The position numbers were made by a program, and so were the translations under genes. 64,000 bases of DNA from NCBI GenBank assembly GCA_937929825.1, contig CALFUV010000008.1, positions 11,838-75,837 of the forward strand. Reading direction: 5' to 3'. Of the stretch, positions 8,621 to 37,738 are shown one piece after another (the first letter of the stretch is position 1; the number at the start of each line of letters is the position of its first letter). The notes beneath the pieces are model-generated. The model saw only the letters and a program-made list of their open reading frames with translations, was not told the origin of the DNA and did not search any database. The DNA comes from an uncultured Patescibacteria group bacterium (GTDB lineage Bacteria > Patescibacteriota > Patescibacteriia > Veblenbacterales > UBA10138).

Positions 8621-8642
8621 AAAGGGGCGAATAAGTTTATTT

Positions 8643-8670
8643 AAGGGTAGCAAAAGCTGCCCTTTTATTA
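8643..8670 (+). terminator. Intrinsic terminator-like hairpin downstream of the 81-aa ORF
   Basis: AAGGGTAGC-aaaa-GCTGCCCTT followed by TTATTATTT; a second short hairpin GCCCTTTAAAAAGGGGC lies just upstream. Confidence 0.4.
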
Positions 8671-8745
8671 TTTCTTTCCTAACTTTAGCTTTAGCTCTTG
8701 ACCTCTCTTGACAGCGGGTGTAAAATTAATCAGCTTTACGTGCGT

Positions 8746-11673
8746 ATGCCAACAAAATCACTCAAAAATAATAATAACAGTCGTTCTACTAAATCTAAAA
8801 TAGGCAACGGTAGCAATGCCATTCCAACTGATAGTATAAGAATCCGCGGTGCGCGGGTGCATAATTTAAAGAACATTTCTTTGAATATTCCCCGGAATAA
8901 ACTGGTAGTTATTACCGGACTTTCCGGTTCAGGGAAATCTTCTTTAGCTTTTGACACCATATATGCTGAAGGACAAAGGCGTTATATAGAGTCACTCTCG
9001 GCTTACGCCAGGCAGTTTTTGGGTATGATGGATAAACCAGATGTGGATCAAATAGATGGACTTTCGCCGGCTATTTCTATTGATCAGAAGTCTACTTCAC
9101 ATAATCCACGTTCCACCGTAGGCACAGTTACGGAAATTTATGATTATTTAAGATTGCTCTACGCCCGCATTGGTATTCCTCATTGCCCTAATTGTGGCCG
9201 TGAAGTAAGCAAGCAGTCAATTGATCAGATAGTTAGTCGATTGTTGGAATTGCCTCAAGGTACAGAAATTTCTTTGCTTTCACCGGTAGTTAGAGATCAA
9301 AAAGGTGAGCATAAGAATACGGTAGCTGAACTTAAAAAGGCTGGTTATGTACGATTGCGTTTTGATGGTAAGCAAATTTCTATTGAAGAAGCCGAAGATT
9401 TGAAGGTGGATAAGCAAAAAAAACACACTGTGGAGGTAGTAGTAGATAGGTTAAAAATTAGTCACGAGTCTGACGATATAACACGTTTACATGATTCTTT
9501 GGAAACAGCCCTTGATTGGGGAGATGGTTTAGTAACAGTTTCTCGCCAAGATACCAGTGAAGATATGCTTTTTAGTCAGCATTTTTCTTGTCCGCACTGT
9601 CAGATTGATTTGCCAAATATTGAGCCGCGTAGCTTTTCTTTTAATTCTCCTCATGGCGCTTGCCCGACTTGTACTGGTTTGGGTACTAGGTTGGAAATTG
9701 ATCCGGATTTGGTAATTCCCAATAAAAAACTATCTTTAGCCGAAGGAGCTATTCGCCCCTGGAGTCGCACCAGTGCCAATCAAACTTGGTATTACCGTAT
9801 TTTAGAAGCAGTAGCGCGTGAATATGGTTTTGGTTTGAATCAGCCTGTATCAAAATTAACCCCGGCGCAATTAAAATTAGTGCTCTATGGTACAGGCAGT
9901 AAAAATTATAATGTAAATGCCGGTGCTGGCGAGGGAGGTAAGGTAAGAGCTTTTTATACAACTTATGAAGGAGTCATACCTAATTTGGAACGACGTTACC
10001 GAGAAACAGAATCAGATTATATGCGATCTGAAATTGAGCGCTATATGAGAGTTTGGCCTTGTTCGGCTTGCCAAGGCAAAAGATTAAAACCAGAAATTTT
10101 AGCTGTTACTGTAGTTGATAAAAGCATTGCTGAGGTGGTAAACATGTCTGTTACCGAAGCTGGTGAATTTTTTTACGAACTTGTAGCTCAGCACAAATTA
10201 AATGAGCGAGATATGAAAATCGCTCACACTATAATAAAAGAAATCAGGGAAAGACTTTCTTTTCTAAGTAATGTTGGTTTGGATTATTTAACATTAGATA
10301 GAGCCGCGGCCACTCTTTCCGGCGGTGAAGCTCAGCGTATTAGATTAGCTACACAAATTGGCTCATCTTTAGTAGGTGTTATTTATATTTTAGATGAACC
10401 TTCTATTGGTTTGCATCAACGCGATAACGATAAATTGATTACTACTCTTAAAAGTTTACGCGATCTGGGTAATACTGTAATAGTGGTGGAGCATGATAGA
10501 GAAACTATGCTGGCGGCAGATGAGCTAATTGATATTGGTCCCGGCGCCGGGAAACATGGGGGTGAAGTTATAGCACAAGGGTCGCCAAGTCAAGTAGCTC
10601 AAAATAACAAGTCGTTAACCGGAAAATATCTTAGCGGTCAGTTGGCAATTCCTGTGCCAGTAAAATCAAGAAAAGGTAATGGTAAGGTAATTACTATACA
10701 AGGTGCCCAAGAATTTAATTTAAAAAATATTACAGTGGATATTCCATTAGGTAAGTTTGTTTGTATCACCGGTGTTTCCGGCTCAGGTAAATCTACTCTA
10801 ATGACTGATATATTATCTCGTGCTCTAGCTCAGCATTTTTATAATGCCAAAGATCTGCCGGGTAAACACAAAGCCATTCGTGGGTTGGAACACATTGATA
10901 AAGTAATTACTATTGACCAATCACCAATCGGCCGTACGCCGCGGAGTAACCCCGCCACTTATACCGGAGTATTTACTCCTATTCGCGATCTTTTTTCACA
11001 ATTACCGGAAGCTAAAATTCGCGGTTATGATCCGGGCAGGTTTTCTTTCAATGTCAAAGGCGGACGCTGTGAGGCTTGTGAAGGTGATGGTTTAGTGCGG
11101 ATTGAAATGCATTTTTTACCCGATGTTTATGTGGAATGCGAAGAATGTCATGGCCGGCGCTACAATAGCCAAGCCTTGGAAATTCACTATAAAGGCAAAA
11201 ATATTGCCGATGTTTTACAAATGACCGCGGAAGAGGCTTTTGTTTTTTTTGAAAATGTGCCGGCAATTCAGCAAAAATTGAAAGTATTATGTGATGTGGG
11301 GTTGGGGTATATTCATTTGGGGCAAAGCGCTACCACACTTTCCGGCGGCGAGGCGCAAAGAATTAAGCTGGCTACGGAACTTTCTAGGCGTTCTACTGGA
11401 CGTACTCTTTATATTTTAGACGAACCAACTACCGGATTGCATTTTGAGGATATTAAAAGATTATTAGCCGTTTTGGCTGAATTGGTAGATAGAGGCAATA
11501 CTGTGTTGGTAATTGAACATAATTTGGATGTTATAAAGTGTGCTGATTGGATAATTGATTTGGGGCCGGAAGGCGGCAATAAAGGGGGTGAAGTGGTAGC
11601 ACTGGGCACGCCGCGAGATATAGCTAAATGCAAAAATAGTTACACCGGTCAGTGGCTGAAAAAGGTTTTGTAG
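8746..11673 (+). CDS. uvrA: Excinuclease ABC subunit A (UvrA)
   Basis: Two ABC ATPase modules ([12 protein letters not shown] and [11 protein letters not shown]), two LSGGEAQR signature motifs, zinc-finger cysteines ([28 protein letters not shown]). The track starts at TTG 8698; ATG 8746 (MPTKSLK...) is taken here, and either is possible. Confidence 0.9.
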
Positions 11674-11792
11674 TGCAATTATTTATATTTAAGATATTAA
11701 ATAAATTAATAATATAGCTATTAATAGGTTAATGTTGGATACTTGTTGGTTTTATTATTGTCAACAAGTGATTTACGGATGATAATAAAGCT

Positions 11793-13094
11793 ATGAAATG
11801 GCCGGTTAAAAAAATACAACTCAGCTTGTTCTATTTGTTGGTATTTTTTTTACCCTGGCAAACTCGGTATATTTTTTATGAACCTTTGTTAAATGGCGGG
11901 GTTTGGGAGTACGGCAAACTCAGCCTGTACAGTTGGGATATAATTTTATTCATACTTATAGTTTGGTTATGGCCCCACATTAGACAGGAATTAATAGTGT
12001 TGTTTAAACAAAGCCGCGCTTGGTCTTTTTTTATAATGCTTGCTAGCTTAGCTTTTTTAATAGGGGGCTGGGCATATGATCCAATTTTATCTTTATATTG
12101 GGGAATACGTTTATTATGCGGTGGAGCATTGTGGTTAATATTGAGAATACTTAAACCAAAGATATCATTAATATTTCTCAGTTTAGCTCTAGCTGGTACT
12201 TTTCAGGCTATTTGGGGATTAGGACAGTTTGTTGTTCAGGATATACCAGCTAATAAATGGCTAGGTGTGGCCGCTCATCCTATAACTCAAGCAGGGACTT
12301 CTGTTTTATTAAATGAAGGCGGGCGCTGGTTGCGTGCTTATGGCGGGCAGGCACACCCTAATATTTTAGGAGGATTATTGGTGATTACATCCTTAGCCAC
12401 TGTTTGGTTAATAGTAAATTTAAAAATAAAAAATTGGCATTTTATTATTAGTCAGAAAATATTAAAAAGAGGATTATGGTTTATTTATATTCTTCAGCTT
12501 GTTGGTTTGTTTTTGGCCTTTTCTCGAGCGGCCTGGCTGGCTTTTTTTATATCACTTAGTTTATTTGTTGGAAGATTTTGGAATAGTAAAATAAAAAATA
12601 ATTTATCTCAATTTATGCCCTTAGTAGCAGCAGTAATTATTTTTATAATTATGGGAACTGTTTTGTGGCAGCCAACTCGCGCCAGATTAATTGGTGACAG
12701 CGTCAGCCGGTTAGAAAAACAAGCTATTGAAGAAAGAATTAGGGGTATGACTGAAAGTAAAAGTTTATTGGGTGCTAATTGGTGGCGCGGTGTTGGTTTG
12801 GGAAATTATACCAAAGCTTTAGCAATATATTCGCCCGGTTATCAATCTTATGTTTATCAGCCAGTACATAATATTTTTTTATTGATTTTAACGGAACTTG
12901 GTTTAGTTGGCCTAGTTTTGTGGATTTTATTTATTTGGCATATATTTAAAATTTACAAGCCGGCATTAATAATATTTTTAGTGCCGATTGGAATTACTGT
13001 TTTTTTTGACCATTATTGGTGGACTTCAGCTTCTATGTGGTTATTATTTTGGCTAGTAATAGCCCTGCCAGAGGGTGAATTAGATAGCTCTTGA
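11793..13094 (+). CDS. O-antigen ligase (WaaL/Wzy_C)-like polytopic membrane protein
   Basis: 433 aa, about 10-12 TM helices, periplasmic-loop motif RAAWLAFFISLSL, and the H-N...E.G..G motif (QPVHNIFLLILTELGLVGL) characteristic of O-antigen ligase-type polymerases. Confidence 0.55.
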   Translation: MKWPVKKIQLSLFYLLVFFLPWQTRYIFYEPLLNGGVWEYGKLSLYSWDIILFILIVWLWPHIRQELIVLFKQSRAWSFFIMLASLAFLIGGWAYDPILSLYWGIRLLCGGALWLILRILKPKISLIFLSLALAGTFQAIWGLGQFVVQDIPANKWLGVAAHPITQAGTSVLLNEGGRWLRAYGGQAHPNILGGLLVITSLATVWLIVNLKIKNWHFIISQKILKRGLWFIYILQLVGLFLAFSRAAWLAFFISLSLFVGRFWNSKIKNNLSQFMPLVAAVIIFIIMGTVLWQPTRARLIGDSVSRLEKQAIEERIRGMTESKSLLGANWWRGVGLGNYTKALAIYSPGYQSYVYQPVHNIFLLILTELGLVGLVLWILFIWHIFKIYKPALIIFLVPIGITVFFDHYWWTSASMWLLFWLVIALPEGELDSS

Positions 13095-13162
13095 CAGCTT
13101 TTTAGACCTTATTTAAAATAAGGATTGGCTGTTAATTAGCACTCTCATATAAAGAGTGCTAA
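13091..13162 (+). promoter_or_regulatory. Sigma-70-type promoter (TTGACA...TATTTAAAAT) followed by a perfect CIRCE inverted repeat (HrcA operator) upstream of groES
   Basis: TTGACA at 13091-13096; CIRCE TTAGCACTC-tcatataaa-GAGTGCTAA at 13136-13162 matches the canonical TTAGCACTC-N9-GAGTGCTAA. Confidence 0.8.
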
Positions 13163-13199
13163 TTACCTCAAATTTCTAATAATTAATTATATTTAACCT

Positions 13200-13496
13200 A
13201 TGAATTTAAAACTTAAACCCTTAGGTGATCATATTGTGGTTAAAGTGGTAAAGGAGGATAAAACCACTAAGTCAGGTATTGTCTTGCCTGATACAGTAGA
13301 TAAGGAAAAGCAGGAAACCGGCGAAGTTATAGCTGTGGGGCCGGGTAAATTACTTGATAATGGCAACCGTGCTCCTATGGAAGTTAAACCGGGCGATAAG
13401 GTGCTATTTAAGAAATACTCTTTAGATGAATTTAAAATTGACGAGGAAGAGTTTGGTACTCTCCAACTTTCTGACGTCATTGCAATTATTGAATAA
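13200..13496 (+). CDS. groES: Co-chaperonin GroES
   Basis: 98 aa, LKPLGDHIVVKVVKEDKTTKSGIVLPD...GEVIAVGPG. Confidence 0.95.
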   Translation: MNLKLKPLGDHIVVKVVKEDKTTKSGIVLPDTVDKEKQETGEVIAVGPGKLLDNGNRAPMEVKPGDKVLFKKYSLDEFKIDEEEFGTLQLSDVIAIIE

Positions 13497-13507
13497 TTAA
13501 TTTTTAA

Positions 13508-15145
<1,638 letters not shown>

Positions 15146-25554: not shown

Positions 25555-26444
25555 CAATGCCTTGTACTTATTGTGGCCATATTTCCCGATTACGTTATGA
25601 AGGAAATGTTACTAGTCAAGAATTTTTTCTCAAATCAGGTCAGTATGCCATTACTGATACCACTGGCTTTAAAAAATTAGATGTTTACGAATGTGATTAT
25701 TGTCAGTTAGCGTTTTCTCCTATTAGTATAAAACAAAGTGATTTAGATATTTTTTATAAAGCACAAAAGAGAGATGATTTATATTTATTAGAAAAAGTTG
25801 GTCGGTTGAAAACAGCACGTCGTTTATTAATAAAGGCGGGTAGATTAGCCATTAGATCAAATGGTAAATTGTATGATTATGGTTCTGGCCCCGGGTTTTT
25901 ATTGGCAGAAGCAAAAAAGATGGGATGGAAAGTAGCTGGAGCAGAAATTTCACCTTGGGCTAAAGATTATGCCAAGCTGGAGTTTGGTTTAGAATTAGAT
26001 GAACCAGAATCTTTAGAATTATTACCCGACGAGTCATTAGATTTTATAACTCTTTGTGATGTTTTAGAACATTTATTAGATCCGGTATCATTATTAAAAA
26101 TAGTAAAAAATAAAATTAAACAAGATGGCTTAGTAATAATAACAGTCCCTAGATATGACTCTTGGCTTCGTAAGTTGTTGGGAAAAAATTGGCATGCTAT
26201 GTTTCCAGCACATTTAACTTATTTTACTTATGAAGGATTAAAGAAAATGTTAGATCAGAAAGGATTGGAAATTATTTATAAAAGAAGCCATTTGGTTTAT
26301 TTTTCACTAAGTTATTTATGGTGTCGCATTGTTTGTATATTTGGTGGCAAACCGGTTTATAAACAAGGCTTGTTATCAAGGTTATTAATTCCTATTAATT
26401 TAGGTGATGAATTAGAAATTTATGCTCGCCGAAAGGTAAATTGA
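25551..26444 (+). CDS. Class I SAM-dependent methyltransferase
   Basis: Glycine-rich SAM motif LYDYGSGPGFLL and acidic motif ITLCDVLEHL, N-terminal Cys pairs (CTYCGH...CDYC); 4-nt overlap with the upstream gene. Confidence 0.65.
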   Translation: MTMPCTYCGHISRLRYEGNVTSQEFFLKSGQYAITDTTGFKKLDVYECDYCQLAFSPISIKQSDLDIFYKAQKRDDLYLLEKVGRLKTARRLLIKAGRLAIRSNGKLYDYGSGPGFLLAEAKKMGWKVAGAEISPWAKDYAKLEFGLELDEPESLELLPDESLDFITLCDVLEHLLDPVSLLKIVKNKIKQDGLVIITVPRYDSWLRKLLGKNWHAMFPAHLTYFTYEGLKKMLDQKGLEIIYKRSHLVYFSLSYLWCRIVCIFGGKPVYKQGLLSRLLIPINLGDELEIYARRKVN

Positions 26445-26613
26445 GTTTATATTTCTTCAAATTATTAATATTGAAATATAAATTTTAAGATTTATTATTT
26501 CATCAAGATTTGTGAATAATAAAATTACCCTAAGAAGTTGTTTATTGTATTATCAGTTATATAATTGAAATATTGTTGTAATTTTAATAAAAAGATAAAA
26601 TGATTGTATAAAG

Positions 26614-27615
26614 ATGAAAAATCATAATCCTAATCAATACCCACACGAATCTGCTGGCCGGATTTTGACAATTAAAGTACCCGCTGTAAACGAATTGGCT
26701 AAAGTAGGTGATATAGAATCAATGTTGACAAAAAATAGCAGCGATTTTGATAGTATTGATTATGTTTATGTTTTAGGCAACCACGGGGAGTTAAAAGGAG
26801 TAGTTTCGGTACGAGAAGTATTTCAGCAAGAGTCAGATGTTTTGGTTAGTAAAGTAATGTCACCGGCTTCAGTAACAGTTAGGCCATATACAGATCAAGA
26901 GCGGGTGGCCTTATTAGCTTTAAGGCATTCTTTAAAAGCTGTACCAGTAGTAGATAAAGACAATTTTTTTATAGGTATTGTGCCCCATAACGCTATTTTG
27001 AAGATATTAGATCAGGAAGCAGTGGAGGATATCTTACGTTTAGGCGGCGTCTATCAAGGTAAAGCTGAATTAACTAGTTACGATAGGGTTTTAGAGTTAC
27101 CCATAACCAAATCATTAAAACATCGCTTACCCTGGTTGATTTTAGGATTGATTGGTGGATTTGTAGCCGCGGCTATAATTGGCGTATTTGAACATACTTT
27201 ATCTCAAAACTTGACTCTAGCCGCCTTTATTCCCTTAGTGGTTTATATGGCGAATGCTGTTGGTATACAAACTGAAGCTTTTATCATACGTGAATTGGCA
27301 GTTAATCCGACTTTAGTTTTTAAAAAATATTTTCAAAGACAGTTTGTTGTAGTGGCATTAATCGGGTTTACTATGAGCTTTTTGCTTTATTTTGTAAGTT
27401 TATTTATTTATCATCAAACACAGTTAAGTTTTGTTTTGGGAACATCACTTTTTATAGCCACACTCACCTCAATTATTACTGGTTTAATAATTCCTTATAC
27501 TTTTAGTCGTTTAAAACAAGATCCGGCTAATGCCAGTGGCCCTATAGCTACAATTTTGCAGGATATTATTAGTGTAATAGTGTATTTCGGCGTAGCAAAG
27601 TTACTTTTATCTTGA
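26614..27615 (+). CDS. mgtE: Magnesium transporter MgtE (CBS pair plus MgtE membrane domain)
   Basis: N-terminal CBS-like region (VMSPASVTVRPYTDQERV...AVPVVDKDNFFIGIV), then five TM helices with the D-rich motif typical of MgtE. Confidence 0.65.
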   Translation: MKNHNPNQYPHESAGRILTIKVPAVNELAKVGDIESMLTKNSSDFDSIDYVYVLGNHGELKGVVSVREVFQQESDVLVSKVMSPASVTVRPYTDQERVALLALRHSLKAVPVVDKDNFFIGIVPHNAILKILDQEAVEDILRLGGVYQGKAELTSYDRVLELPITKSLKHRLPWLILGLIGGFVAAAIIGVFEHTLSQNLTLAAFIPLVVYMANAVGIQTEAFIIRELAVNPTLVFKKYFQRQFVVVALIGFTMSFLLYFVSLFIYHQTQLSFVLGTSLFIATLTSIITGLIIPYTFSRLKQDPANASGPIATILQDIISVIVYFGVAKLLLS

Positions 27616-27634
27616 GTACTTAATCTTTAGGCTC

Positions 27635-28003
27635 TTGACATGTTTTTGGATTTTGCTATCATATGAATATATGTTCATATATAAACGTTGCCATTGTTCG
27701 CTTAAGCCACCAAAACAACGGATTAGTCTAGCCAAACTACAGGAGCACAGTAAGCTTTTAAAGATTATTACCGTGCCTAGGCGTATGCAACTATTGTTGC
27801 TCTTGGCACAAAAAGCCCACTGCGTTTGCGATTTGATGGAGCATACTGGCATGTCGCAAACATTGGTTTCTCATCATGTAACAGATATGGCTAAAGCTGG
27901 TTTACTTGTGGGACAGCGTAATAGTAAATATGTTGATTATCATCTTACTCCTAAAGGTAAAATAATAATTAGACATTTAATTAATTGTTTAAAAAAAATA
28001 TGA
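27635..28003 (+). CDS. ArsR/SmtB-family transcriptional regulator
   Basis: HTH LLKIITVPRRMQLLLLLAQKAHCVCDLMEHTGMSQTLVSHHVTDMAKAGLL with paired Cys (CVCD) before the recognition helix, as in metal-sensing ArsR/SmtB. Confidence 0.6.
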   Translation: MTCFWILLSYEYMFIYKRCHCSLKPPKQRISLAKLQEHSKLLKIITVPRRMQLLLLLAQKAHCVCDLMEHTGMSQTLVSHHVTDMAKAGLLVGQRNSKYVDYHLTPKGKIIIRHLINCLKKI

Positions 28004-28236
28004 AAATAACTATATTTGGCACCGGATGCCCTAAATGTATAATGTTGGAAAATTTAGCTAAACAAGCTGTAGCTGAGCTTAATTTAGCCGAAGCTACGGT
28101 TGAGCATGAATATGATATTGAACGGATTATAGAGGAAGGAATTATGAGTACGCCAGCACTCAAAATTGATGGCAGTATTATGTGCGCTGGTAGGCTGCCT
28201 AGTTTAGATGAACTTAAAAGTTGGTTAAAAAATTAA
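28000..28236 (+). CDS. Small thioredoxin-fold protein with CPKC (redox-active disulfide protein 2 / glutaredoxin-like)
   Basis: MKITIFGTGCPKC... is 78 aa. Its start overlaps the ArsR stop (ATGA). The track's earlier start at 27985 is less likely. Confidence 0.6.
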   Translation: MKITIFGTGCPKCIMLENLAKQAVAELNLAEATVEHEYDIERIIEEGIMSTPALKIDGSIMCAGRLPSLDELKSWLKN

Positions 28237-28240
28237 GAAT

Positions 28241-29359
28241 ATGACCGAACGAACTAAATTCAGCCTTATTATTGGCGTTTTTCTAGTATTGTATTTTATC
28301 CCCGTAGATTTAACGGCTTTAGGTCAGGGTTTTATTTCTGGGGTGACCTTATTGCAAGAATATGCGCGTCAACACGTGCTCACTTGTTTGGTGCCGGCCT
28401 TCTTCATTGCTGGAGCGATAGCTGTTTTTGTAAAACAGGATTGGGTATTAAAATATTTGAGCGGTAAGGATAAGCCTTGGCGAGCTTATACTTTAGCCTC
28501 TGTTTCAGGCGCTCTTTTGGCTGTATGTTCTTGCACTATTCTGCCATTGTTTGCCGGTATATGGAAACGTGGGGCCGGATTAGGGCCAGCTGTCACTTTT
28601 TTATTTTCCGGGCCGGCTATTAATGTAGGAGCTATATTTTTAACTGCTTCTGTGTTGGGTTTTCCTCTTGGCTTAGCGCGTGGTCTAGCCGCCATAGCAC
28701 TTTCAATTTTAATTGGATTTATTATGCATTGGTTTTTTAAAGGAGTTAATAGTATTAATTCTCAGCAGACGTCAGTGATAACAGGAAGTGAATTGGTGGT
28801 AGTAAAAAAATCAGCACTTATTTTATTTTTTGGATCGCTAGTAGGTATATTGGTAGTTAATGGAATATCTTTTTTGCCGGTAGCAAAATACAGCCTGATT
28901 GGTTTTTTAGTAGCTGTGGTGATATGGGTAGCAATGTTTTCTTTTTCCCGAAACATTAGGCAGCAGTGGCTGCAAGAAACTTGGAGTTTAACTAAACTTT
29001 TAGCGCCAGTATTGTTTATAGGAGTATTTATTGTGGGATTTATCATGCCATTTTTGCCCGAAAGTTTAATATCTGATTTGGTAGGTAATAGTACACTAAG
29101 CGCCAATTTTATTGCCGGAGCCTTTGGTGTTTTAATGTATTTTTCTACCTTAACTGAGGTGCCAATCGTTCAGGCTCTAATGGCTAAGGGCATGGTTGCT
29201 GGCCCGGCCCTAACCTTGCTTTTGGCTGGACCAGCGTTAAGTTTACCCAGTATGTTAGTGATAAGAAAAGTTTTAGGGAATACCAAAACAGCGGTTTATG
29301 TAGGCCTAGCTCTATTCTTTTCATCTTTTGCCGGTTTTATTTATGGATTATTAGTTTAA
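28241..29359 (+). CDS. Permease, DUF318-like (often found next to ArsR and thioredoxin-like genes)
   Basis: 372 aa, about 8-10 TM helices, two internally repeated halves with Cys (CSCTILPLFAG); recognition plus context. Confidence 0.5.
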   Translation: MTERTKFSLIIGVFLVLYFIPVDLTALGQGFISGVTLLQEYARQHVLTCLVPAFFIAGAIAVFVKQDWVLKYLSGKDKPWRAYTLASVSGALLAVCSCTILPLFAGIWKRGAGLGPAVTFLFSGPAINVGAIFLTASVLGFPLGLARGLAAIALSILIGFIMHWFFKGVNSINSQQTSVITGSELVVVKKSALILFFGSLVGILVVNGISFLPVAKYSLIGFLVAVVIWVAMFSFSRNIRQQWLQETWSLTKLLAPVLFIGVFIVGFIMPFLPESLISDLVGNSTLSANFIAGAFGVLMYFSTLTEVPIVQALMAKGMVAGPALTLLLAGPALSLPSMLVIRKVLGNTKTAVYVGLALFFSSFAGFIYGLLV

Positions 29360-29364
29360 AAAAT

Positions 29365-30690
29365 ATGCTCAAAAAAATAATATCAATAATATTTATTGCC
29401 ATTATTTTTTTTTCTCCCACCATAAACTCAGCTCAAAGTAGTGTGCCGGTCTATTTTTTTTGGGGAGATGGTTGTCCGCATTGTGTGGCGGCTAAACCTT
29501 TTTTACAGGAGTTGGAACGACAAAACCCCAGTGTTAAAGTATATTCTTTTGAAGTTTGGTACAGTACTGCTAATCGGAAATTATTAACAGATACAGCTAA
29601 AGAATTGAAAATAGATGTCAAGGGTGTGCCTTTTATTGTAGTGGGACAGGAATATGTAACTGGTTTTTATAATGCTGAAACCACAGGCAGACAAATACAA
29701 ACCTATGTGGAAAGATGTATGGCGGCTGGTTGTGTAGATATTGTTGGTCCACTGGCAGGACTTACGTCAGTCAAACCATTAGCACCAGAACCACCTATTG
29801 GTTCGGCTGATACTAAACCACAACCGGTAGAGCCGGTAGACACATTTATAGAAATAAATCCGCAGCCAGAGGAATCGGAATTATCAATTAAGACAGAGGA
29901 TCAGAGTAATATCGCAATAGAAGAAGATCTAAGTCCGATTCCGGAAAGTTTACGTTTACCTTTAGTGGGTGAGATTAAAACAAAACACTTATCATTGCCA
30001 TTACTAACCATTATTATTGCCGCGCTTGATGGTTTTAATCCATGTGCCATGTGGGTTTTGGTTTTTTTAATTGGTTTATTGTTGGGTGTAACTGATGTTA
30101 AACGGCGTTGGTTATTAGGCAGTACTTTCATAGTAGCCTCAGCCGCGGTCTATTTTGTTTTCCTGGCTGCCTGGCTTAACCTGATTCTTTTTATTGGCGC
30201 TATTTTAATAATAAGAATCATAATTGGTTTGGTAGCCATTGGTGGTGGAGCTTATAGTTTGCGGGAATATTTCCTAAAGCGGGATGAAACTTGCAAAGTA
30301 ACCGCGCCAGATAAGCGCCGGCGGGTTTTTGATCGCCTAAAGGCCATCAGCCAAGAAAAAAGATTATGGTTAGCTCTAGGTGGTATTATTCTCTTAGCTT
30401 TTGCCGTTAATTTGGTAGAGCTTATTTGTTCGGCTGGATTGCCGGCGGTTTATACACAGATATTAGCTTTGTCGCCCATGCCTCATTGGCAATATTATCT
30501 TTATCTTCTTCTCTACATATTTATTTTTATGCTGGATGATATGATAGTGTTTGCTGTGGCTATGGTCACTCTACAAATTACCGGTTTGACTACTAAATAT
30601 ACCCGTTGGGCTCATCTAATTGGTGGTATACTCATGGTTATAGTTGGCCTGCTACTCATATTTAAGCCTCAATGGTTGATGTTTGGTTAG
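29365..30690 (+). CDS. Thioredoxin/DsbA-like domain (CPHC) fused to a DsbD/CcdA-like two-cysteine membrane domain (ScsB/DsbD-like)
   Basis: Signal/anchor, then FFWGDGCPHCVAAKPF (Trx fold), a linker, and TM helices carrying GFNPCAMWV and ICSAGLP, which correspond to the CcdA cysteines. Confidence 0.5.
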   Translation: MLKKIISIIFIAIIFFSPTINSAQSSVPVYFFWGDGCPHCVAAKPFLQELERQNPSVKVYSFEVWYSTANRKLLTDTAKELKIDVKGVPFIVVGQEYVTGFYNAETTGRQIQTYVERCMAAGCVDIVGPLAGLTSVKPLAPEPPIGSADTKPQPVEPVDTFIEINPQPEESELSIKTEDQSNIAIEEDLSPIPESLRLPLVGEIKTKHLSLPLLTIIIAALDGFNPCAMWVLVFLIGLLLGVTDVKRRWLLGSTFIVASAAVYFVFLAAWLNLILFIGAILIIRIIIGLVAIGGGAYSLREYFLKRDETCKVTAPDKRRRVFDRLKAISQEKRLWLALGGIILLAFAVNLVELICSAGLPAVYTQILALSPMPHWQYYLYLLLYIFIFMLDDMIVFAVAMVTLQITGLTTKYTRWAHLIGGILMVIVGLLLIFKPQWLMFG

Positions 30691-30706
30691 CTGATTACTT
30701 AATAAA

Positions 30707-31165
30707 ATGTCAATAAATTTTATAAGACACAATAAATTAATATTATTATTTTTAGCATTATTTTTATTAACAGGCTGTAGTCAAGTTCCTGTTGAAAACA
30801 GGGAAAATTTTTCAAGAGCAAACCAGCCACCTGATAAAATTGTGGTAGTACATTTTCATGGCACCCAGCAATGCTGGTCGTGTATTACCGTCGGCAAGTA
30901 CGCTCTTAAAACAATTAAAGAAAAATTTTCCGAAGAATACTCTAATGGTTTAATAGAGTTTAAGGATATAAATGGTGAATTACCAGCTAATAGGGATATA
31001 GTCATTAAATATCAAGCCCGTGGTTCTTCTTTATATGTGAACACAATAATCGCTGGCCAAGATAATATAAAAGAAGATGTTACTGTTTGGCGGCTAGTAA
31101 ATAATGAAAACCAATTTATTAGTTATTTTGAAGGTGTGCTGAAAAATTTATTAGCTAAAAAATAA
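30707..31165 (+). CDS. Lipoprotein with CxxC motif (putative extracytoplasmic thiol-disulfide oxidoreductase, TlpA/ScsD-like)
   Basis: Lipobox LLTGC, then VVHFHGTQQCWSCITVG. Confidence 0.45.
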   Translation: MSINFIRHNKLILLFLALFLLTGCSQVPVENRENFSRANQPPDKIVVVHFHGTQQCWSCITVGKYALKTIKEKFSEEYSNGLIEFKDINGELPANRDIVIKYQARGSSLYVNTIIAGQDNIKEDVTVWRLVNNENQFISYFEGVLKNLLAKK

Positions 31166-31902
31166 TGTTTGATTATATTAATTATTTTATAGACAATTAC
31201 AACATTCCGGTACTAACCGCATTTTTATTGGGAATTTTAACTTCTATTGGTCCGTGTCCACTGGCAACGAATATTACAGCGATCGCTTATATTTCTAGAG
31301 ATATTAAGTCACCCAAATACATAATTATATCTGGTCTTTTTTATATTTTAGGCAGAGGCATAAGCTATGCTTTATTAGCTGCTCTTATTTACTTCGGACT
31401 TTCGTCATTTCAAATTTCAAGAATTTTTCAAGGCTGGGGTGATAAAGTTTTGGGCCCAGTACTGATTTTAATTGGTCTTATGATGTTTGGTGTTATCAAA
31501 ATCAATTTAAAAAATAACAGCCAAACAATTGAAAAAATAAAATTGTGGCTGTCGGACAAAGGATATTTAGGTTCGTTATCTTTGGGTATGCTATTTGCTC
31601 TCGCTTTCTGCCCATACAGTGGTGTATTGTTTTTTGGTGCATTTATGCCTTTGGTTTTAATTACTGCTGGGGGTCCAGCCCTTTCGTTATTTTTTGCTTT
31701 AGGTACCGGCCTGCCAGTTATAATTTTTTCTTTTTTATTAGCTTTTTCTTTGCACAAAGTTAGTAAAATATTTAAAGCTGTTCAAAAAATAGAAAAGATT
31801 ATGCGTTATACTGTAGCGACAGTTTTTGTTGGTGTAGGTTTTTATTATTTAGGCTATTTTATTAGCTATTTATTAAACCGATTTATCGGGCAAGATTATT
31901 AA
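31165..31902 (+). CDS. CcdA/DsbD-family transmembrane disulfide-electron-transfer protein (paralog 1)
   Basis: Six TM helices with GILTSIGPCPLATN (TM1) and ALAFCPYSG (TM4). Start overlaps the upstream stop (ATGT). Confidence 0.55.
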   Translation: MFDYINYFIDNYNIPVLTAFLLGILTSIGPCPLATNITAIAYISRDIKSPKYIIISGLFYILGRGISYALLAALIYFGLSSFQISRIFQGWGDKVLGPVLILIGLMMFGVIKINLKNNSQTIEKIKLWLSDKGYLGSLSLGMLFALAFCPYSGVLFFGAFMPLVLITAGGPALSLFFALGTGLPVIIFSFLLAFSLHKVSKIFKAVQKIEKIMRYTVATVFVGVGFYYLGYFISYLLNRFIGQDY

Positions 31903-32106
31903 AATAAGCCAATCCGTGTTTAATCAGATTTTATTAATCATGAAGATAGTCTTTTTAATTGGTCGGCCGACTGGCGTTTTTATTTTTCATAATAACTTCT
32001 TATTTTTATTTATGTTATTTTAGTTTTTTTATTCTAAGACATTTACTAGTTATACCAAGATTATTTAAACATTATCAATAAATTAATTTGCTATAATAAA
32101 AAGGCT

Positions 32107-33450
32107 ATGAAAAAGCAGAGTTATTTGGCTATTTTTATTATTTTGCTGGTGATTTTGGTTTGGCAAAAATCATCATTTTTAGCTAAGGCACAAACTACCA
32201 GCGAAGAAAAAGCCTCTACCCGACAGGTTTTGGAGCAAGAATTGCGAGATATAGAAGAACAGATCAAAATCTACGAAAAGCAATTAATTACCATTAAAGG
32301 GGAAAAAAATACTTTGCAGAATAAGATAAATCAGTTGCGTAATCGGCAGGCTGCTTTGAATTTGGAAATTAAAGCCACCAATCTCAAGATCTCTGATTTG
32401 GAAAGAAAAATAAATGTTACTTTGGCTGATATTTCTCAGCATGAATTGTTAATAAATTCATTACGTCAACAGTTAGCTGATTATATTCGTCTTATGTATC
32501 AGCGTGATGGTTTTCCTGTTTATTACACTTTTTTATTAGGCGGCCGGCTTTCTGACATGATGACAGATTTAGAATCCTATGTGCAGATTAGTGAAGGTTT
32601 ACAGTTGTTGGTTAAGGAGCTTAAAGTAACTAAACAACAATTAGAAAGTCAGGCAGCAGTTTTGGCTGAACAAAAAGATGATAATAAGAATCTGCTTTCC
32701 TTAAGTATTTTACAACAGCAGTCTTTAGCTAGTTTGGTTACAGAACAAAATACTTTGTTGCGGCAAACACAGGGTCGGGAAAGTGAATATCAAAAAGAGT
32801 TGACCAATACTCGTAAGCGGGCCGCTGAAATACGTAGCCGTATTTACGAACTTTTAGGTGTTAGCAAGAATATTACTTTTGGACAAGCAGTAGAAATTGC
32901 CAGTTGGGTATCTAAATTAACCGGTGTGCGCACAGCTTTTTTGCTGGCAGTATTAACCCAAGAATCTAATTTAGGCAAGAATGTGGGGACTTGTAATCGA
33001 CCGGGAGATCCTCCAGAAAAAAGTTGGCGGGTAATTATGAAGCCGGATAGGGATCAAGAACCGTTTTTAGCTATTACTAAAGAATTGGGCATGAATCCAG
33101 ATGAAACACCGGTTTCTTGTCCTATGAGAAATAAAGACGGTTCTCAATTAGGTTGGGGCGGGGCTATGGGGCCGGCGCAGTTTATTCCTTCCACTTGGCA
33201 GGGGTATAAAGCGCGCGTCAGCGCTATTACCGGTAATAGTCCGGCAAATCCTTGGGATATTCGGGACGCTTTCGTGGCGGCGGCTATTCTACTTAAGAGT
33301 AACGGCGCTGATGGTACTCGCGATGGCGATTGGCGTGCGGCTATGCGTTATTTTTCCGGCGGTACCAATCCGGCTTATAGTTTTTATGGCAATAGCGTTT
33401 TGGAACTCACAGCTAAATATGAGGCTGATATAGCTACTTTAGGACAGTAA
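32107..33450 (+). CDS. Secreted coiled-coil protein with a C-terminal lytic-transglycosylase/lysozyme-like domain
   Basis: Signal peptide, about 250 aa of heptad-rich coiled coil, then TAFLLAVLTQESNLG (catalytic-Glu context) and GGAMGPAQFIPSTWQGY, which resemble the E-S and G-x-MQ motifs of family-1 lytic transglycosylases. Confidence 0.45.
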   Translation: MKKQSYLAIFIILLVILVWQKSSFLAKAQTTSEEKASTRQVLEQELRDIEEQIKIYEKQLITIKGEKNTLQNKINQLRNRQAALNLEIKATNLKISDLERKINVTLADISQHELLINSLRQQLADYIRLMYQRDGFPVYYTFLLGGRLSDMMTDLESYVQISEGLQLLVKELKVTKQQLESQAAVLAEQKDDNKNLLSLSILQQQSLASLVTEQNTLLRQTQGRESEYQKELTNTRKRAAEIRSRIYELLGVSKNITFGQAVEIASWVSKLTGVRTAFLLAVLTQESNLGKNVGTCNRPGDPPEKSWRVIMKPDRDQEPFLAITKELGMNPDETPVSCPMRNKDGSQLGWGGAMGPAQFIPSTWQGYKARVSAITGNSPANPWDIRDAFVAAAILLKSNGADGTRDGDWRAAMRYFSGGTNPAYSFYGNSVLELTAKYEADIATLGQ

Positions 33451-33924: not shown

Positions 33925-34485
33925 ATGGACCAAACTGAATTAAAAGCCATTGTTGCTTGTCAGGCTGGAAGGTTAGATCAGTTTACAGCCCTTTACGAGC
34001 TTTATGCAGAGCGTATTTATCGTTTTGTGTATTATAAAACTTGGCATCGTGAAGTAGCTGAAGATTTAACCTCCTTAACTTTTTTAAAAGCTCTTGAACA
34101 TATAACTGATTATGATATTGGGCGTGGCAATTTTTCCTCTTGGCTTTATCGTATAGCTCATAATAATGTGGTAGATTATTATCGCACCGCTAAATTGGCA
34201 GTTGATATTGATGATATTTTTAATCTGGCCGCCAAGCAGGATTTATTCACGAAAACAGAAGTTAATTTAGCACTTGAAGAAGTAAAAAAATACCTTGGTT
34301 CTTTATCTTCAGAAACTCGTGATCTTTTGTTTATGAGATTATGGCAAGGGTTATCATATCAGGAAATAGCCGAAATTACCGGCAAGAGTGAAGGAGCTTT
34401 AAAAATGTCTGCCTCCCGTGCTCTGAGGCAATTACGAGACGGGTTTTCAGCTGTAGTTTTCTTACTTATTGCCAACTTAATTTAA
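33925..34485 (+). CDS. ECF (sigma-70 family group 4) sigma factor
   Basis: Region 2 ERIYRFVYYKTWHREVAEDLTSLTFLKA...IAHNNVVDYYR, region 4 LSYQEIAEITGKSEGALKMSASRALRQLR. Confidence 0.8.
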   Translation: MDQTELKAIVACQAGRLDQFTALYELYAERIYRFVYYKTWHREVAEDLTSLTFLKALEHITDYDIGRGNFSSWLYRIAHNNVVDYYRTAKLAVDIDDIFNLAAKQDLFTKTEVNLALEEVKKYLGSLSSETRDLLFMRLWQGLSYQEIAEITGKSEGALKMSASRALRQLRDGFSAVVFLLIANLI

Positions 34486-34487
34486 AT

Positions 34488-36107
34488 ATGCCCCAAACCA
34501 TTCGCACAATTTTGGAAGAACTTTATCAGCTTGATCCGGAACTTCGTGCCCGGGAGGCTGAATTGGCACCGTTAATACTGCGCTTGGTTCAGGCTAAACC
34601 AAATATTAAACCATCACCTAAATTTTTCGTTGATTTAAAGGTAAAACTTATGAATAAAGAAAAAGAATTAATGTCAGTTAATAAAGAGTTAGTACAGGAG
34701 ACCAAATTAAATCCGTGGTTTAATTTAGCTTCTTTTATGCGCCAGCCTTATTTACTTACAATGGTGGCTTTAGTGGCTTTTATGCTCATTTTAATTTCCA
34801 GCTTACCCGGTACTATACGCCGGTTTAATCGGATTAATCAGTTTGAGCCGGGTATTACTCGTTTACCAAATGGCGCCTTTGGTAATTTATTAGCTGTATC
34901 TGATGGTACGCCGATTGGTTGGGGTGGAGCTGGTAAGACGACTAGGCCTTCTACAAGTGATATTCGTACAGTTACAAATCAATTTTCTCCGACGCCGGCT
35001 GGTTTGGGCGGGGAAGCTGGTATGAATCAGGCTATGATTTATCCTTATCCGGAGTACTCTTATAAATTTATAGGCGCAAAAATGGAAGATTTACCAGCAC
35101 AGGTTGATGTCTTGCGGAGAATTAAAAATGTTGGTTTATCCGTGAACAACAGCTTTCTAAGAAGTTTTGACGTGGGTAGTTTTAAATTGGATAGTTTCTC
35201 CGGTGCCAGTTTATCCCAAATTACTCTTACTGAAGATAAAGAATACGGTTATATTATAAGCATTGATTTTTTGGAAGGAATGGTGAATGTTTACGAAAAT
35301 TGGCGTCGTTGGCCACAGCCGTTTAATGATTGTCACGACGAAGATTGTTATCACCGCTTGCAAATTAGACCGGAGCAGGTGCCGGTTGATGAAAGTTTAA
35401 TTGCCATTGCCAACGCTTGGCTGCGCGAACATGGCATTAATACTTCTGCCTATGGTACGCCTTTTATACAAGATGATTGGCGCTTGTATTACGATCAAGC
35501 TGAAGATAAATCTACGGTTTATGTGCCAGATATTATCACGGTTATTTATCCAATTAAGATTAATAATTTCTCAGTATACGAATATAGCGGTAATCAAATA
35601 GGTTTGGGCGTGAATATCAATATTCGTTACAATCGCGTTTCCGGTATGTGGAATATGTCTAGTCTGCGTTTTGAAGCTTCATCTTATGAAGCGGAAACTG
35701 ATTGGGATACTTTGCTAAAATACGCTACGTCCGGCGGGCAGGGTTATCCTACGCCTTTGATTTACCCGACAAACGACTTTGATCAAAATAAAAAAGTTGA
35801 ATTTAATTTAGAAACCCCCACCATTGGTTATTTGAGATACTGGCATTATCAAAATGGCGATAATCAGGAGTTATTATTACCGGCCCTTGTTTTTCCGGTG
35901 AAACCGGCAAAGCAGAACTATGTTTTTATGCCCCAAAATGTTGTAGTCCCATTGGTCAAAGAATTTTTACAATCAAGTTATATTGATGGACCGGTTAAAA
36001 TAATGCCGGCTGTAGGTGTGCCTGATGTGCCGGTATCTTCAGATGGCAGTGGCGGTGTGACTGAACAGTCTGTTAACCCAAGTATTGAGTCAATGTTAAT
36101 TCGTTAA
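34488..36107 (+). CDS. Putative anti-sigma factor: single-pass membrane protein co-transcribed with the ECF sigma factor
   Basis: Starts 3 nt after the sigma-factor stop. Roughly 85-aa cytoplasmic N-terminus, one TM (YLLTMVALVAFMLILISSL), about 430-aa extracytoplasmic domain. The architecture is typical of ECF anti-sigma factors; this is inferred, not shown. Confidence 0.35.
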   Translation: MPQTIRTILEELYQLDPELRAREAELAPLILRLVQAKPNIKPSPKFFVDLKVKLMNKEKELMSVNKELVQETKLNPWFNLASFMRQPYLLTMVALVAFMLILISSLPGTIRRFNRINQFEPGITRLPNGAFGNLLAVSDGTPIGWGGAGKTTRPSTSDIRTVTNQFSPTPAGLGGEAGMNQAMIYPYPEYSYKFIGAKMEDLPAQVDVLRRIKNVGLSVNNSFLRSFDVGSFKLDSFSGASLSQITLTEDKEYGYIISIDFLEGMVNVYENWRRWPQPFNDCHDEDCYHRLQIRPEQVPVDESLIAIANAWLREHGINTSAYGTPFIQDDWRLYYDQAEDKSTVYVPDIITVIYPIKINNFSVYEYSGNQIGLGVNINIRYNRVSGMWNMSSLRFEASSYEAETDWDTLLKYATSGGQGYPTPLIYPTNDFDQNKKVEFNLETPTIGYLRYWHYQNGDNQELLLPALVFPVKPAKQNYVFMPQNVVVPLVKEFLQSSYIDGPVKIMPAVGVPDVPVSSDGSGGVTEQSVNPSIESMLIR

Positions 36108-36125
36108 AATTTTCAGGCCCGTGGT

Positions 36126-36698
36126 ATGTTAACAGCTAAGGCGCGTAATTTAATATTAGGTTTTATAATCCTAGTCAGTTTTGGTTTTTTCTTAAGCCGT
36201 TTAGTTATTAAACCAATGCCGGAAGAAAAAATACCACCAACCATGCGCTTAGAAGTTTTTTATTCAAATACCGAACTTGATCCACCTGATATTTATGATT
36301 GCACACTAGTTTATCCGGTGGAAAGAGTGGTGCCGCGCCAAGCAGATATTATTCGTGTTGCTTTACAGGAATTATTAAAAGGTCCAACTGATGAGGAAAA
36401 AGACCAAGGCTATACATCTCCTTTTTCTGCCGCTACGGCCGATATTTTAGTTTCCGTACGCACTAGTGGCGGCACAGCTTATGTTGATTTTAAAGATTTT
36501 CGAGAGTTGTTACCCGAAGTTTCCGCATCTTGTGGTTCCCAACAATTCAGGCATCAGGTGGAGCAGACTTTAAAGCAATTTCCCGGTGTGGGCCGTGTTA
36601 TTTACGCTATAGAAAAAATCCCCCAAACTTTTTATGATTTTGTGGGCGTAGGTTGTGATTGGCCTGGTACTACTTGTGACGCTTCCCAGTTTCCTTAA
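36126..36698 (+). CDS. GerMN-domain protein (secreted or anchored)
   Basis: N-terminal anchor, IIRVALQELLKGPTDEEKDQGYTSPF and later TAYVDFKDF, the GerMN LL.GPT motif. Confidence 0.5.
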   Translation: MLTAKARNLILGFIILVSFGFFLSRLVIKPMPEEKIPPTMRLEVFYSNTELDPPDIYDCTLVYPVERVVPRQADIIRVALQELLKGPTDEEKDQGYTSPFSAATADILVSVRTSGGTAYVDFKDFRELLPEVSASCGSQQFRHQVEQTLKQFPGVGRVIYAIEKIPQTFYDFVGVGCDWPGTTCDASQFP

Positions 36699-36754
36699 AG
36701 TTTCCTTAAAGTAAAATTTTTAAATCGCCACTTCTTTAAATAAGTGGCGCAAGA

Positions 36755-36898
36755 ATCGCCGCCTCGGTCTTCGTGTCATGCAGTGCTCGCCGCACTCACT
36801 AACGAGCCCTATGCATAAAGGTCGTAACACGAGCTCGTTGGCCATTCGCGCGTCTTCCACTCTGCTACTAACACTACGACAGGGCGGCAGAAGATAGT
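36755..36898. ncRNA. Candidate structured RNA element, copy A (GC-rich, about 144 nt; homologous to 55509..55651); strand unknown
   Basis: About 58% GC in an AT-rich intergenic region. About 70% identical to copy B over the same length; central hairpin ACGAGC/GCTCGT (36802-36807 / 36833-36838) corresponds to a covarying stem in B. Confidence 0.4.
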
Positions 36899-36955
36899 TT
36901 CTACTGGAGCCTTTATTAGACACTAGTGTGTTATGTGTTCCATGTTATGTGATAT

Positions 36956-37738
36956 GTGTATAATAAAGTCATGGATTTTGGTTTGAACGTTTCCACTTTA
37001 ATTTTACCAGCATTTTTTGCCGGTATTCTAACTTTTTTGGCACCCTGTACTCTGCCTCTTATCCCCGGTTATTTGGCTTTTATCAGCGGGGTGTCTTTGC
37101 GCGAGTTACAGCAAAAAAATTCAGTTAGTTTACGTCGAAAGGTTTTTTTTAATGGATTATGGTACGTAGTTGGATTTAGTTTAGTTTTCGTTATTTTGGG
37201 TGGAGTTTTTGGTTCTCTTGGTTTGTTATTGGCGCCGTATCGATTACTCTTGGGCAGGTTAGGAGGTATAATAGTGATTTTTTTTGGTCTTTATTTAATT
37301 GGCGTGATTCGTTTGCCTGTACTTTTAGGTGAACATAAATTGCACTTAGAGCGTTTTTTACGTCCGGGCTATAAAACTTCTTCATTTCTGTTCGGCGCCA
37401 CTTTTGCTTTTGGTTGGACGCCTTGCATTGGGCCAATTTTAGCCTCCATTTTGTTATTAGCTTCTTATTCTGCTACTGCCGCCAAAGGTGCTTTTTTGTT
37501 GTTGGTTTTTGCCGCTGGATTAGCCGTGCCGTTTTTATTGTTGGCTTGGGGCGTAGGTGCGGTGTCGCGTTATCTTGTTAAGCTTGGGCCTTATTTAAAA
37601 TTATTATCTGTTATTGGCGGCATTTTACTGGTTTTAATAGGTTTTCTTTTACTGAGTAATAAGTTTGGTTGGTGGTTGCAATGGGCTTATAAAATTTTTG
37701 GTTTTTTAAATTACCAAGTTTTGTTAAAGTATTTATAA
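36956..37738 (+). CDS. ccdA: Cytochrome c-type biogenesis protein CcdA / DsbD transmembrane domain (paralog 2)
   Basis: FFAGILTFLAPCTLPLIPGY (TM1) and GWTPCIGPIL (TM4), the canonical CcdA motifs. Confidence 0.8.
   Translation: MYNKVMDFGLNVSTLILPAFFAGILTFLAPCTLPLIPGYLAFISGVSLRELQQKNSVSLRRKVFFNGLWYVVGFSLVFVILGGVFGSLGLLLAPYRLLLGRLGGIIVIFFGLYLIGVIRLPVLLGEHKLHLERFLRPGYKTSSFLFGATFAFGWTPCIGPILASILLLASYSATAAKGAFLLLVFAAGLAVPFLLLAWGVGAVSRYLVKLGPYLKLLSVIGGILLVLIGFLLLSNKFGWWLQWAYKIFGFLNYQVLLKYL

Follow-up and report, generated by a model that had tools for sequence, protein, structure and literature searches.

In a 64,000-nucleotide (nt) window of the genome of an uncultured Patescibacteria group bacterium (contig CALFUV010000008.1), six co-directional open reading frames (ORFs) of the forward strand, all present in the ORF listing, occupy positions 27635–31902 and, judged by their layout, are a real operon. 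By domain matches and gene order, five of the six (ArsR, ArsE-like, ArsP-type, ArsF and ArsG) are an already known, widespread and annotated arsenic-associated cassette, an identity that was missed in the original prediction, which had been made from the letters of the window. The novelty of this window is a 441-amino-acid (aa) thioredoxin–membrane fusion, hereafter X441, inserted mid-cassette between the permease and ArsF. The evidence points, with modest confidence, to an operon under ArsR repression, with a thiophilic metal(loid) as its inducer, in which an ArsP-family efflux permease would be accompanied by two DsbD-like trans-membrane thiol relays.

In the proposed mechanism the inducer would be a thiophilic metal(loid), with arsenicals as the lead candidate and Zn/Cd/Cu-type soft metals also possible; arsenicals are favoured because of the linkage to arsC and acr3 in other genomes and the known substrates of ArsP (PMC6205960). 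In the first relay, which is split, a cytoplasmic 78-aa thioredoxin (CPKC) would pass reducing equivalents to ArsG (C31/C149), and ArsG would then reduce the exported lipoprotein ArsF (CWSC). The second relay would be fused, the membrane domain of X441 (C227/C355, with C310 on the cytoplasmic side) serving the exported CPHC thioredoxin that is tethered to it. Through the exported CxxC domains, the thiols of the surface and of the permease would stay reduced or unblocked by metal(loid) adducts, and the CxC-motif permease would meanwhile expel the toxic species. Gene order, families, conserved cysteines, predicted topology, linkage across genomes and the ArsF-ArsG fusions are what the analysis shows; which way the electrons flow, which substrates are handled and what induces the operon are inferred from them.

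The tight spacing, the overlapping starts and stops and the operon organization originally proposed for the six genes were borne out. The successive junctions, read from the forward strand, are an ATGA overlap between the arsR stop and the ATG of the second gene at 28000, gaps of 4, 5 and 16 nt, and a one-base overlap (TAATG) between the ArsF stop and the ArsG start. The run is flanked by a promoter-like site at its 5' end and a terminator-like hairpin at its 3' end. The promoter-like site (27635–27662, forward strand), located 20 nt past the stop of an upstream mgtE-like gene, comprises a -35 hexamer TTGACA (27635–27640), a 16-nt spacer and a TG-extended -10 hexamer TATCAT (27657–27662); with 11 of 12 consensus positions it had the top sigma-70-like score in a scan of 26400–32300, a consensus match only. 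The last gene, encoding ArsG, is followed by a 204-nt AT-rich spacer, in which the hairpin GTCGGCCGACTGGC, continued by the T-run TTTTTATTTTT, lies 60 nt past the stop (31962–31985, forward strand; pattern match only). No recognisable Shine-Dalgarno sequence was found at any of the six genes, the Rfam scan of the region returned no RNA element, and GC content was even across the operon neighbourhood.

The start of the first gene had originally been placed at TTG 27635, as it also is in the NCBI annotation, yielding a 122-aa product; the 110-aa and 122-aa products are both on record. Since this TTG is part of the -35 hexamer, and since 110 aa fits homologues of 100–110 aa, ATG 27671 is the likelier start of the regulator. 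The -10 hexamer ends at 27662, which places this ATG at, or a couple of bases from, the transcription start, and this near coincidence suggests that the regulator mRNA is leaderless or near-leaderless. An inverted repeat of two abutting 10-nt arms (ATATGAATAT/ATGTTCATAT; 27661–27680; core TGAA-N6-TTCA; 90% complementary) overlaps both the -10 hexamer and ATG 27671, and constitutes a candidate ArsR operator.

The first gene (27671–28003, forward strand) encodes a 110-aa protein matching PF01022 HTH_5 (48.2 bits, cut-off 22) and NF033788 (60.3, cut-off 55), in agreement with its earlier description as an ArsR/SmtB-family metalloregulator with a CVC pair. Numbered on the 110-aa product, Cys7 and Cys9 lie in an N-terminal RCHCS motif and Cys51 and Cys53 in HCVCDL, in the α3 helix region; the homologues at loci L005, L009 and L024 keep both the N-terminal pair and the CVC. 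We take this arrangement to be compatible with As(III)-type or Cd/Pb-type sites, such as those of CadC and the Corynebacterium glutamicum ArsR. An α5-type site (DxHx10H) was considered and dropped, as the homologues do not keep it.

The second gene (28000–28236, forward strand) starts at ATG 28000, which replaces the TTG at 27985 of the ORF list, and encodes the 78-aa thioredoxin-like protein MKITIFGTGCPKC. Its assignment to the MTH895/ArsE family (Thioredoxin_3) is based on TIGR00412 (89.8, cut-off 62) and PF13192 (80 bits); it carries CPKC (residues 10–13) after β1 and, having no signal peptide, is predicted to be cytoplasmic. The third gene (28241–29359, forward strand) encodes a 372-aa permease of the ArsP_1 family (PF03773, the former DUF318; 247.3 bits over residues 35–369), as had been recognised, with a vicinal pair C96-S-C98 (AVCSCTILP) inside a hydrophobic segment. 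It scored under the equivalog cut-offs of the SO_0444 Cu/Zn model (118.4 vs. 300) and the SaoE model (104.8 vs. 325). A CxC motif was present in all 47 permeases adjoining ArsG homologues (TPFCSCS in 35, AVCSCT in 12), and in the ArsP of Campylobacter jejuni the CxC cysteine pair is reported to be needed for the transport of trivalent methylarsenical (MAs(III)). That protein expels trivalent organoarsenicals (PMC6205960); zinc resistance has been conferred by another relative within PF03773 (bioRxiv 10.1101/072470). The original prediction had attributed a redox-active cysteine pair to every member of the operon: the pairs are indeed present, but in ArsR (CVC) and the permease (CxC) they more probably serve as ligands of a metal(loid).

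The membrane and exported parts of the split relay would be encoded by the last two genes. ArsF (30707–31165, forward strand) is a 152-aa protein with the lipobox LLTG-C24 and the motif C56-W-S-C59 (QQCWSC), in accordance with its earlier description as a lipoprotein carrying QQCWSC; it passes NF040494 (84.3, cut-off 60). Its CxxC is invariant in 120 close homologues and among fusions of ArsF to ArsG, with the exception of one fusion (P0319) in which the ArsF CxxC is lost and both ArsG cysteines are retained. An N-terminal hydrophobic anchor or lipobox was found in 117 of the 120 homologues, as well as in the Fulvitalea and Prevotella copies described below, which predicts export; the Thioredoxin_3 proteins, on the other hand, start straight at β1 with no signal and are thus predicted to reside in the opposite compartment. 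With a profile of ArsF and the fusions, weak similarity to DsbD's C-terminal thioredoxin domain (6dnl, E 0.22) and a match to CcdA (5vkv, E 0.012) were obtained. ArsG (31165–31902, forward strand), correctly foreseen as a CcdA-family membrane protein, has 245 aa, six helices and matches to the equivalog NF040495 (274.3, cut-off 200) and to PF13386 DsbD_2 (66.2 bits). The CcdA/DsbD signature, with a Cys(-Pro) in each of helices 1 and 4, is found in it as C31 (GPCPLATN) and C149 (FCPYSG); in 104 representatives at ≤50% identity both cysteines were 99% conserved and were, together with P150 and F157, the only near-invariant residues. Moreover, the nine long ArsG-family representatives tested (380–425 aa; P0256, P0265, P0279, P0286, P0319, P0344, P0350, P0353 and P0370) were all fusions of a transmembrane anchor, ArsF and ArsG, in the same domain order as DsbD and ScsB (order according to PMC3322552).

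The same cassette was recovered from a sample of 80 metagenome loci around ArsG homologues. Among the 34 well-flanked loci (≥2 kb on each side), a Thioredoxin_3 gene was present in 33 and an ArsP_1 permease in 30, all co-directional. An ArsF-like, exported CxxC ORF was found directly upstream of ArsG in every one of the 67 evaluable loci, 47 of them by tblastn and 20 by ORF features (a length of 128–170 aa, a hydrophobic segment at the N-terminus and CxxC located around residues 43–74). The recurrence of the same co-directional genes in dozens of unrelated contigs indicates that the arrangement is not due to chance. Among cultured organisms annotated by the NCBI Prokaryotic Genome Annotation Pipeline (PGAP), plasmid pFA1 of Fulvitalea axinellae carries the order ArsR–thioredoxin–ArsF–ArsG–permease, and a mobile element of Prevotella nigrescens F0103 the order winged helix-turn-helix regulator–ArsF–ArsG–thioredoxin–permease–ArsC–ACR3. 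The link of the cassette to arsenic resistance is genomic. Seven of eight sets comprising CcdA, a thioredoxin and the protein called “redox-active disulfide protein 2” described from ars operons were located within arsC-containing operons, and DsbD-like electron transfer was raised as a possibility for these sets by the same authors (Castillo & Saier 2010, PMC2963123).

Variants of the cassette were also observed. In L015, from a metagenome-assembled genome (MAG) of Candidatus Aenigmatarchaeota, the genes X441, Thioredoxin_3, ArsF, ArsG and ArsP_1 follow each other in one direction (10001–14059), and their products are 49–54% identical to those of the window, except ArsF (35%); this suggests either transfer between Patescibacteria and DPANN archaea or mis-binning. 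Split ArsP_1 genes follow ArsG in many metagenome loci; in L087 a second ArsP_1 permease, split into ORFs of 160 and 177 aa, stands beside the cassette together with genes for a ferredoxin, a CDF transporter and a small thioredoxin, after which comes the X441 homologue (8271–11022). In L085 a 211-aa ORF without Pfam match (8198–8833) separates the ArsG homologue from that of X441, and a 199-aa counterpart occurs in L086.

The label “nitrophenyl compound nitroreductase subunit ArsF” stands in thousands of genomes, as does “aromatic aminobenzylarsenical efflux permease ArsG”; the names reportedly come from the genetics and biochemistry of Shewanella putrefaciens 200, a study cited in PMC9144182. 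Taken at face value, they imply a pathway of aromatic organoarsenical detoxification in which ArsE and ArsF would form a nitroreductase that turns roxarsone or nitarsone, in trivalent form, into amino-arsenicals; ArsG would export the products and ArsP would export methylarsenite. PGAP gives these names to the Fulvitalea and Prevotella homologues, and the ArsE-family, ArsF and ArsG models are all passed above their cut-offs, but a predicted exported ArsF and a predicted cytoplasmic ArsE-like protein could not form one soluble enzyme, and the domain matches included no cofactor domain, flavin or other, such as a nitroreductase has. ArsG, for its part, keeps only the CcdA Cys-Pro signature and is found fused behind ArsF as in DsbD. 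The cassette furthermore occurs widely, in Patescibacteria as well as in DPANN archaea and metagenomes of sediments. As nitro-aromatic arsenicals are synthetic products of the twentieth century, a nitro-arsenical role cannot be ancestral. As an account of this operon we consider the pathway very unlikely. Given the predicted topologies, the invariant CcdA cysteine signature and the ArsF-ArsG fusions, a split DsbD-like relay appears to fit better than the label “nitroreductase plus efflux permease”, and the same three observations suggest that what the labels capture is, at most, a side activity of such a relay.

The putative second relay, X441, is encoded by the fourth gene (29365–30690, forward strand) and consists of a signal peptide (aa 1–23), a thioredoxin fold (aa 27–121), a low-complexity, disordered, Pro/Glu-rich linker (aa ~130–195) and a membrane domain (aa ~205–441). 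The ~95-residue thioredoxin/glutaredoxin fold (βαβαββα) carries C37-P-H-C40 and is predicted to be exported; at its end, C118-x4-C123 (CMAAGC; 29716–29733), of which C123 is ≥90% conserved in 24 homologues, may be a structural disulfide. Six long helices are predicted in the membrane domain, of which helices 1 and 4 are broken at cysteines, C227 (DGFNPCAMW) and C355 (NLVELICSAGLP) respectively; a third cysteine, C310 (CKVT), lies in the helix 3–4 loop, which contains 10 Lys/Arg and is predicted to be cytoplasmic. C227, C310 and C355 were invariant in all 199 homologues, and D222, N349, E352, D391 and D392 were conserved in 99–100% of them. While domain searches recovered the expected DUF318 (PF03773), DsbD_2 and thioredoxin (Thioredoxin_3) families in the other genes, the C-terminal 240 residues of X441 had no Pfam or NCBIfam match even at E 10, and the N-terminus gave only sub-threshold glutaredoxin and DsbA matches (PF01323, 17.5 vs. 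25.6, spanning 23 residues). The proposal of a thioredoxin joined to a CcdA/DsbD-like membrane domain thus held in part: the thioredoxin is predicted to be exported, the cysteines sit in two broken helices and the best long structural match of the membrane domain is CcdA, but sequence homology was not detected and the resemblance to DsbD had been overstated.

The X441 family comprises at least 7,477 cluster representatives and occurs in at least 600 species genomes; most members are from Patescibacteria, and some come from DPANN or other MAGs. Many “binchicken” co-assembly MAGs with X441 are titled Gammaproteobacteria, Bdellovibrionales and so on, although gene content around the locus looks Patescibacteria-like; their record taxonomy may be unreliable. 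Longer relatives (520–575 aa; P0003–P0005, P0008–P0012 and others) carry an extra Redoxin or Thioredoxin domain (PF08534, PF00085), so that two exported thioredoxin-like domains precede the membrane domain. In a sample of 80 species-genome loci, Ars-type genes were found near the X441 homologue in only ~10. A commoner context (~24 of 80; L016, L020, L023, L025, L029, L049, L066–L069 and others) was the order DUF5320–DUF134–(YibE/F or ZIP transporter)–89-aa thioredoxin–X441, where DUF134 is sigma70_r4-like and the thioredoxin carries WCxGC; it suggests a DUF134-regulated unit tying metal transport to thiol chemistry. In the window, this 89-aa thioredoxin, the usual predecessor of X441 homologues, is missing. 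CDF and Cu-ATPase genes were also seen beside X441 homologues. Where joined to the cassette, X441 stands at either end of it (L085, L087, L114) or, in L109, at exactly the position seen in the window, along with its own small thioredoxin. Being commonly sited beside metal-transport genes and variably placed in the cassette, X441 is a mobile module tied to metal-transport genes, here inserted into the cassette.

Alternatively, the genes could form a reductive pathway for housekeeping of the envelope (isomerisation of disulfides, repair of sulfenic acids or methionine sulfoxide, or cytochrome c maturation) that happens to stand beside a permease and does not respond to metal(loid)s. In favour of this, ~70 of the 80 X441 homologues in species genomes do not stand beside ArsR, ArsP or ArsG, and a CcdA with a thioredoxin-lipoprotein is the same architecture as in oxidative-stress pathways (PMC3914529, PMC3322552). 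Nevertheless, the operon opens with a CVC-bearing ArsR/SmtB regulator and a palindrome overlapping the promoter, the linkage of permease and relay genes is near-obligate across phyla and joined to arsC-acr3 in Prevotella, and the operon lacks any msr or peroxiredoxin gene. Housekeeping needs could be covered by a separate, canonical CcdA outside the operon (36956–37738, forward strand; PF02683 DsbD_TM, 57.8 bits; C31 and C157), present as originally noted and 24% identical to the ArsG-family protein. Cytochrome c maturation was rejected as a role for the CcdA-like genes, because the window contains no heme-lyase WWD motif and no CxxCH except one CEECH in a 992-aa ORF, as the original prediction had also concluded from the lack of maturation genes. 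The housekeeping explanation is accordingly given little weight, and the general preference for envelope redox or metal(loid) homeostasis over cytochrome biogenesis stands.

A number of observations weigh against an arsenical-responsive pair of thiol relays. The window contains no arsC, acr3, arsM or arsH and, with arsC, acr3 and arsM missing, its arsenic link is an analogy with other genomes. The TGAA-N6-TTCA core was found upstream of the ArsR homologue in just 2 of 25 related loci, against a background of 0.011 per 170 nt; one of the two is L109, with the gene order of the window, and conservation of this putative operator across related loci is weakly supported. The redox activity of every cysteine pair in the operon is assumed, and for the exported CxxC domains no target was identified. 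Chen, Zhang and Rosen reportedly found in Shewanella putrefaciens 200, in 2019, that ArsE and ArsF reduce nitro groups and that ArsG acts in efflux, not in electron transfer. As regards X441, sequence comparison of its membrane half with CcdA/DsbD was not significant (hhalign probability 3–9%; 24 and then 199 X441 sequences against 104 ArsG-family sequences, in local, global and low-mact runs), although the NPC and SPC helix-1 motifs of X441 and ArsG did align; the model from which the CcdA match was drawn is moderately confident (predicted local distance difference test, pLDDT, 67). The acidic intramembrane cluster hints at ion binding, and neither this cluster nor the third cysteine is, to our knowledge, a feature of known CcdA proteins.

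A second alternative is a Mer-like ligand exchange, in which the cysteine pairs would carry the metal(loid) or R-As(III) itself from the cytoplasmic CxxC through ArsG or X441 to the exported CxxC, or in reverse for uptake, and the CcdA-like proteins would be true transporters of thiol-bound species. Such an exchange would square the reported efflux function of ArsG with its conserved cysteine pair; C310 and the invariant D222, E352, D391 and D392 in the membrane are as an ion path would lead one to expect, X441 homologues adjoin ZIP, CDF, YibE/F and Cu-ATPase genes, and each of the neighbouring ArsP permeases has the CxC motif. The DsbD fold superfamily, moreover, includes metal exporters, and one ArsF-ArsG fusion gave a weak nickel/cobalt-efflux match and another a very weak Cad match. 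The operon, however, already has a dedicated permease, metal binding by the cysteine pairs is hypothetical, and electrons are what the CcdA-type proteins investigated to date transfer (PMC3322552, PMC3914529); we regard ligand exchange as unlikely. For the preferred relay mechanism, the siting of X441 homologues beside metal-transport genes, together with the CVC and N-terminal cysteine pair of ArsR, forms part of the metal(loid) link.

In a broader and more tentative reading, which may well not hold as a whole, the ArsEFG + ArsP cassette would be a split DsbD-type thiol relay acting with a Cys-pair permease against thiophilic metal(loid)s. X441 would stand for a family of CcdA-fold proteins with a fused thioredoxin, very large, centred on Patescibacteria and so far unmodelled, whose three invariant cysteines and acidic intramembrane site could move electrons or thiol-bound metal across the membrane. 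If so, the DsbD/LysE-type fold would gain in X441 a branch with a new function, which may also be the principal thiol system outside the cytoplasm in the reduced Patescibacteria genomes. These bacteria lack a respiratory chain and their genomes are tiny, and the family is a good candidate for handling their surface thiols or soft metals, on account of the number of its representatives, the lack of a domain model for its membrane half and its habitual siting beside metal transporters. The cassette itself is compact and transplantable, and could show whether a CcdA-fold cysteine pair carries As(III)-type ligands besides electrons.

With respect to neighbouring genes, the one upstream of the operon (26614–27615) encodes a 333-aa MgtE-like protein that scored just below the cut-off of TIGR00400 (225.6 vs. 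232.75); as only model positions 127–447 of 450 are matched, it lacks the usual N-terminal domain. On the other side, the canonical CcdA at 36956 is located downstream of genes for an extracytoplasmic function (ECF)-type sigma factor (33925–34485), a 539-aa protein without domain match and a Germane-domain protein, and the stretch 33925–37738 may be a separate envelope-stress unit.

By predicted family membership, the closest known system is the ars-associated thioredoxin/CcdA cassette and not an Scs locus, since three genes pass the curated ArsE, ArsF and ArsG models and the permease is of the ArsP type. The CcdA and thioredoxin sets of ars operons were later given the names ArsE-ArsF-ArsG. 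The operon shares with the ArsE-ArsF-ArsG + ArsP sets the presence of ArsR, TIGR00412, PF03773, NF040494 and NF040495 in one co-directional cluster, and differs from them in its sixth gene, X441, its Patescibacteria-type host and its lack of arsC, acr3, arsM and arsH; the predicted topology and the fusions favour a thiol relay over the nitroreductase-plus-permease roles published for ArsE-ArsF-ArsG. Compared with the C. jejuni ArsP and the SO_0444/Shew_3410 Cu/Zn branch, the permease has PF03773 and the vicinal CSC pair in common, yet belongs to the longer (~370 aa) AVCSCT type rather than the ~300-aa TPFCSCS type. In the mercury relay MerP–MerT, an exported CxxC protein, a membrane cysteine pair and a cytoplasmic-face cysteine act in series; the likeness lies in this serial arrangement and is a mechanistic analogy only, no relation of sequence or fold being expected.

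The parallel originally drawn with Scs-type loci, in which a DsbD-like relay is tied to copper stress (PMC3322552; PMC2631958), did not hold: ScsA, ScsC and ScsD are missing, no Scs families appeared among the Pfam and NCBIfam matches of the six genes, and ScsC structures were generic thioredoxin-fold matches only. Nor is the thioredoxin domain of X441 DsbA-like, as had been supposed, since it shares only the CPHC motif and lacks the inserted helical domain. Both X441 and the ArsF-ArsG fusions resemble DsbD and ScsB in having an exported Cys-pair domain N-terminal to the membrane domain (PMC3322552; PMC2631958) and one cysteine in each of two pseudo-symmetric helices of the membrane half. X441 is, however, not DsbD proper: it has six predicted helices instead of eight, nothing past the last helix where the C-terminal thioredoxin domain would be, no match to PRK00293 DsbD and no sequence-detectable DsbD_TM or DsbD_2 homology, and it differs from both DsbD and ScsB in its extra invariant cytoplasmic cysteine and its invariant acidic membrane residues. 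The CcdA1/2–Etrx1/2–MsrAB2 system of Streptococcus pneumoniae provides a pathway from CcdA to surface thioredoxin-lipoproteins in a single-membrane cell (PMC3914529), and resembles the ArsF and ArsG pair in that a six-helix CcdA-type gene stands beside a CxxC thioredoxin-like lipoprotein of the outer face of a single membrane. The operon differs from it in that MsrAB is lacking and ArsF is not a recognisable Pfam thioredoxin or redoxin, and in that the pair stands under an ArsR regulator and is coupled to an ArsP-type permease.

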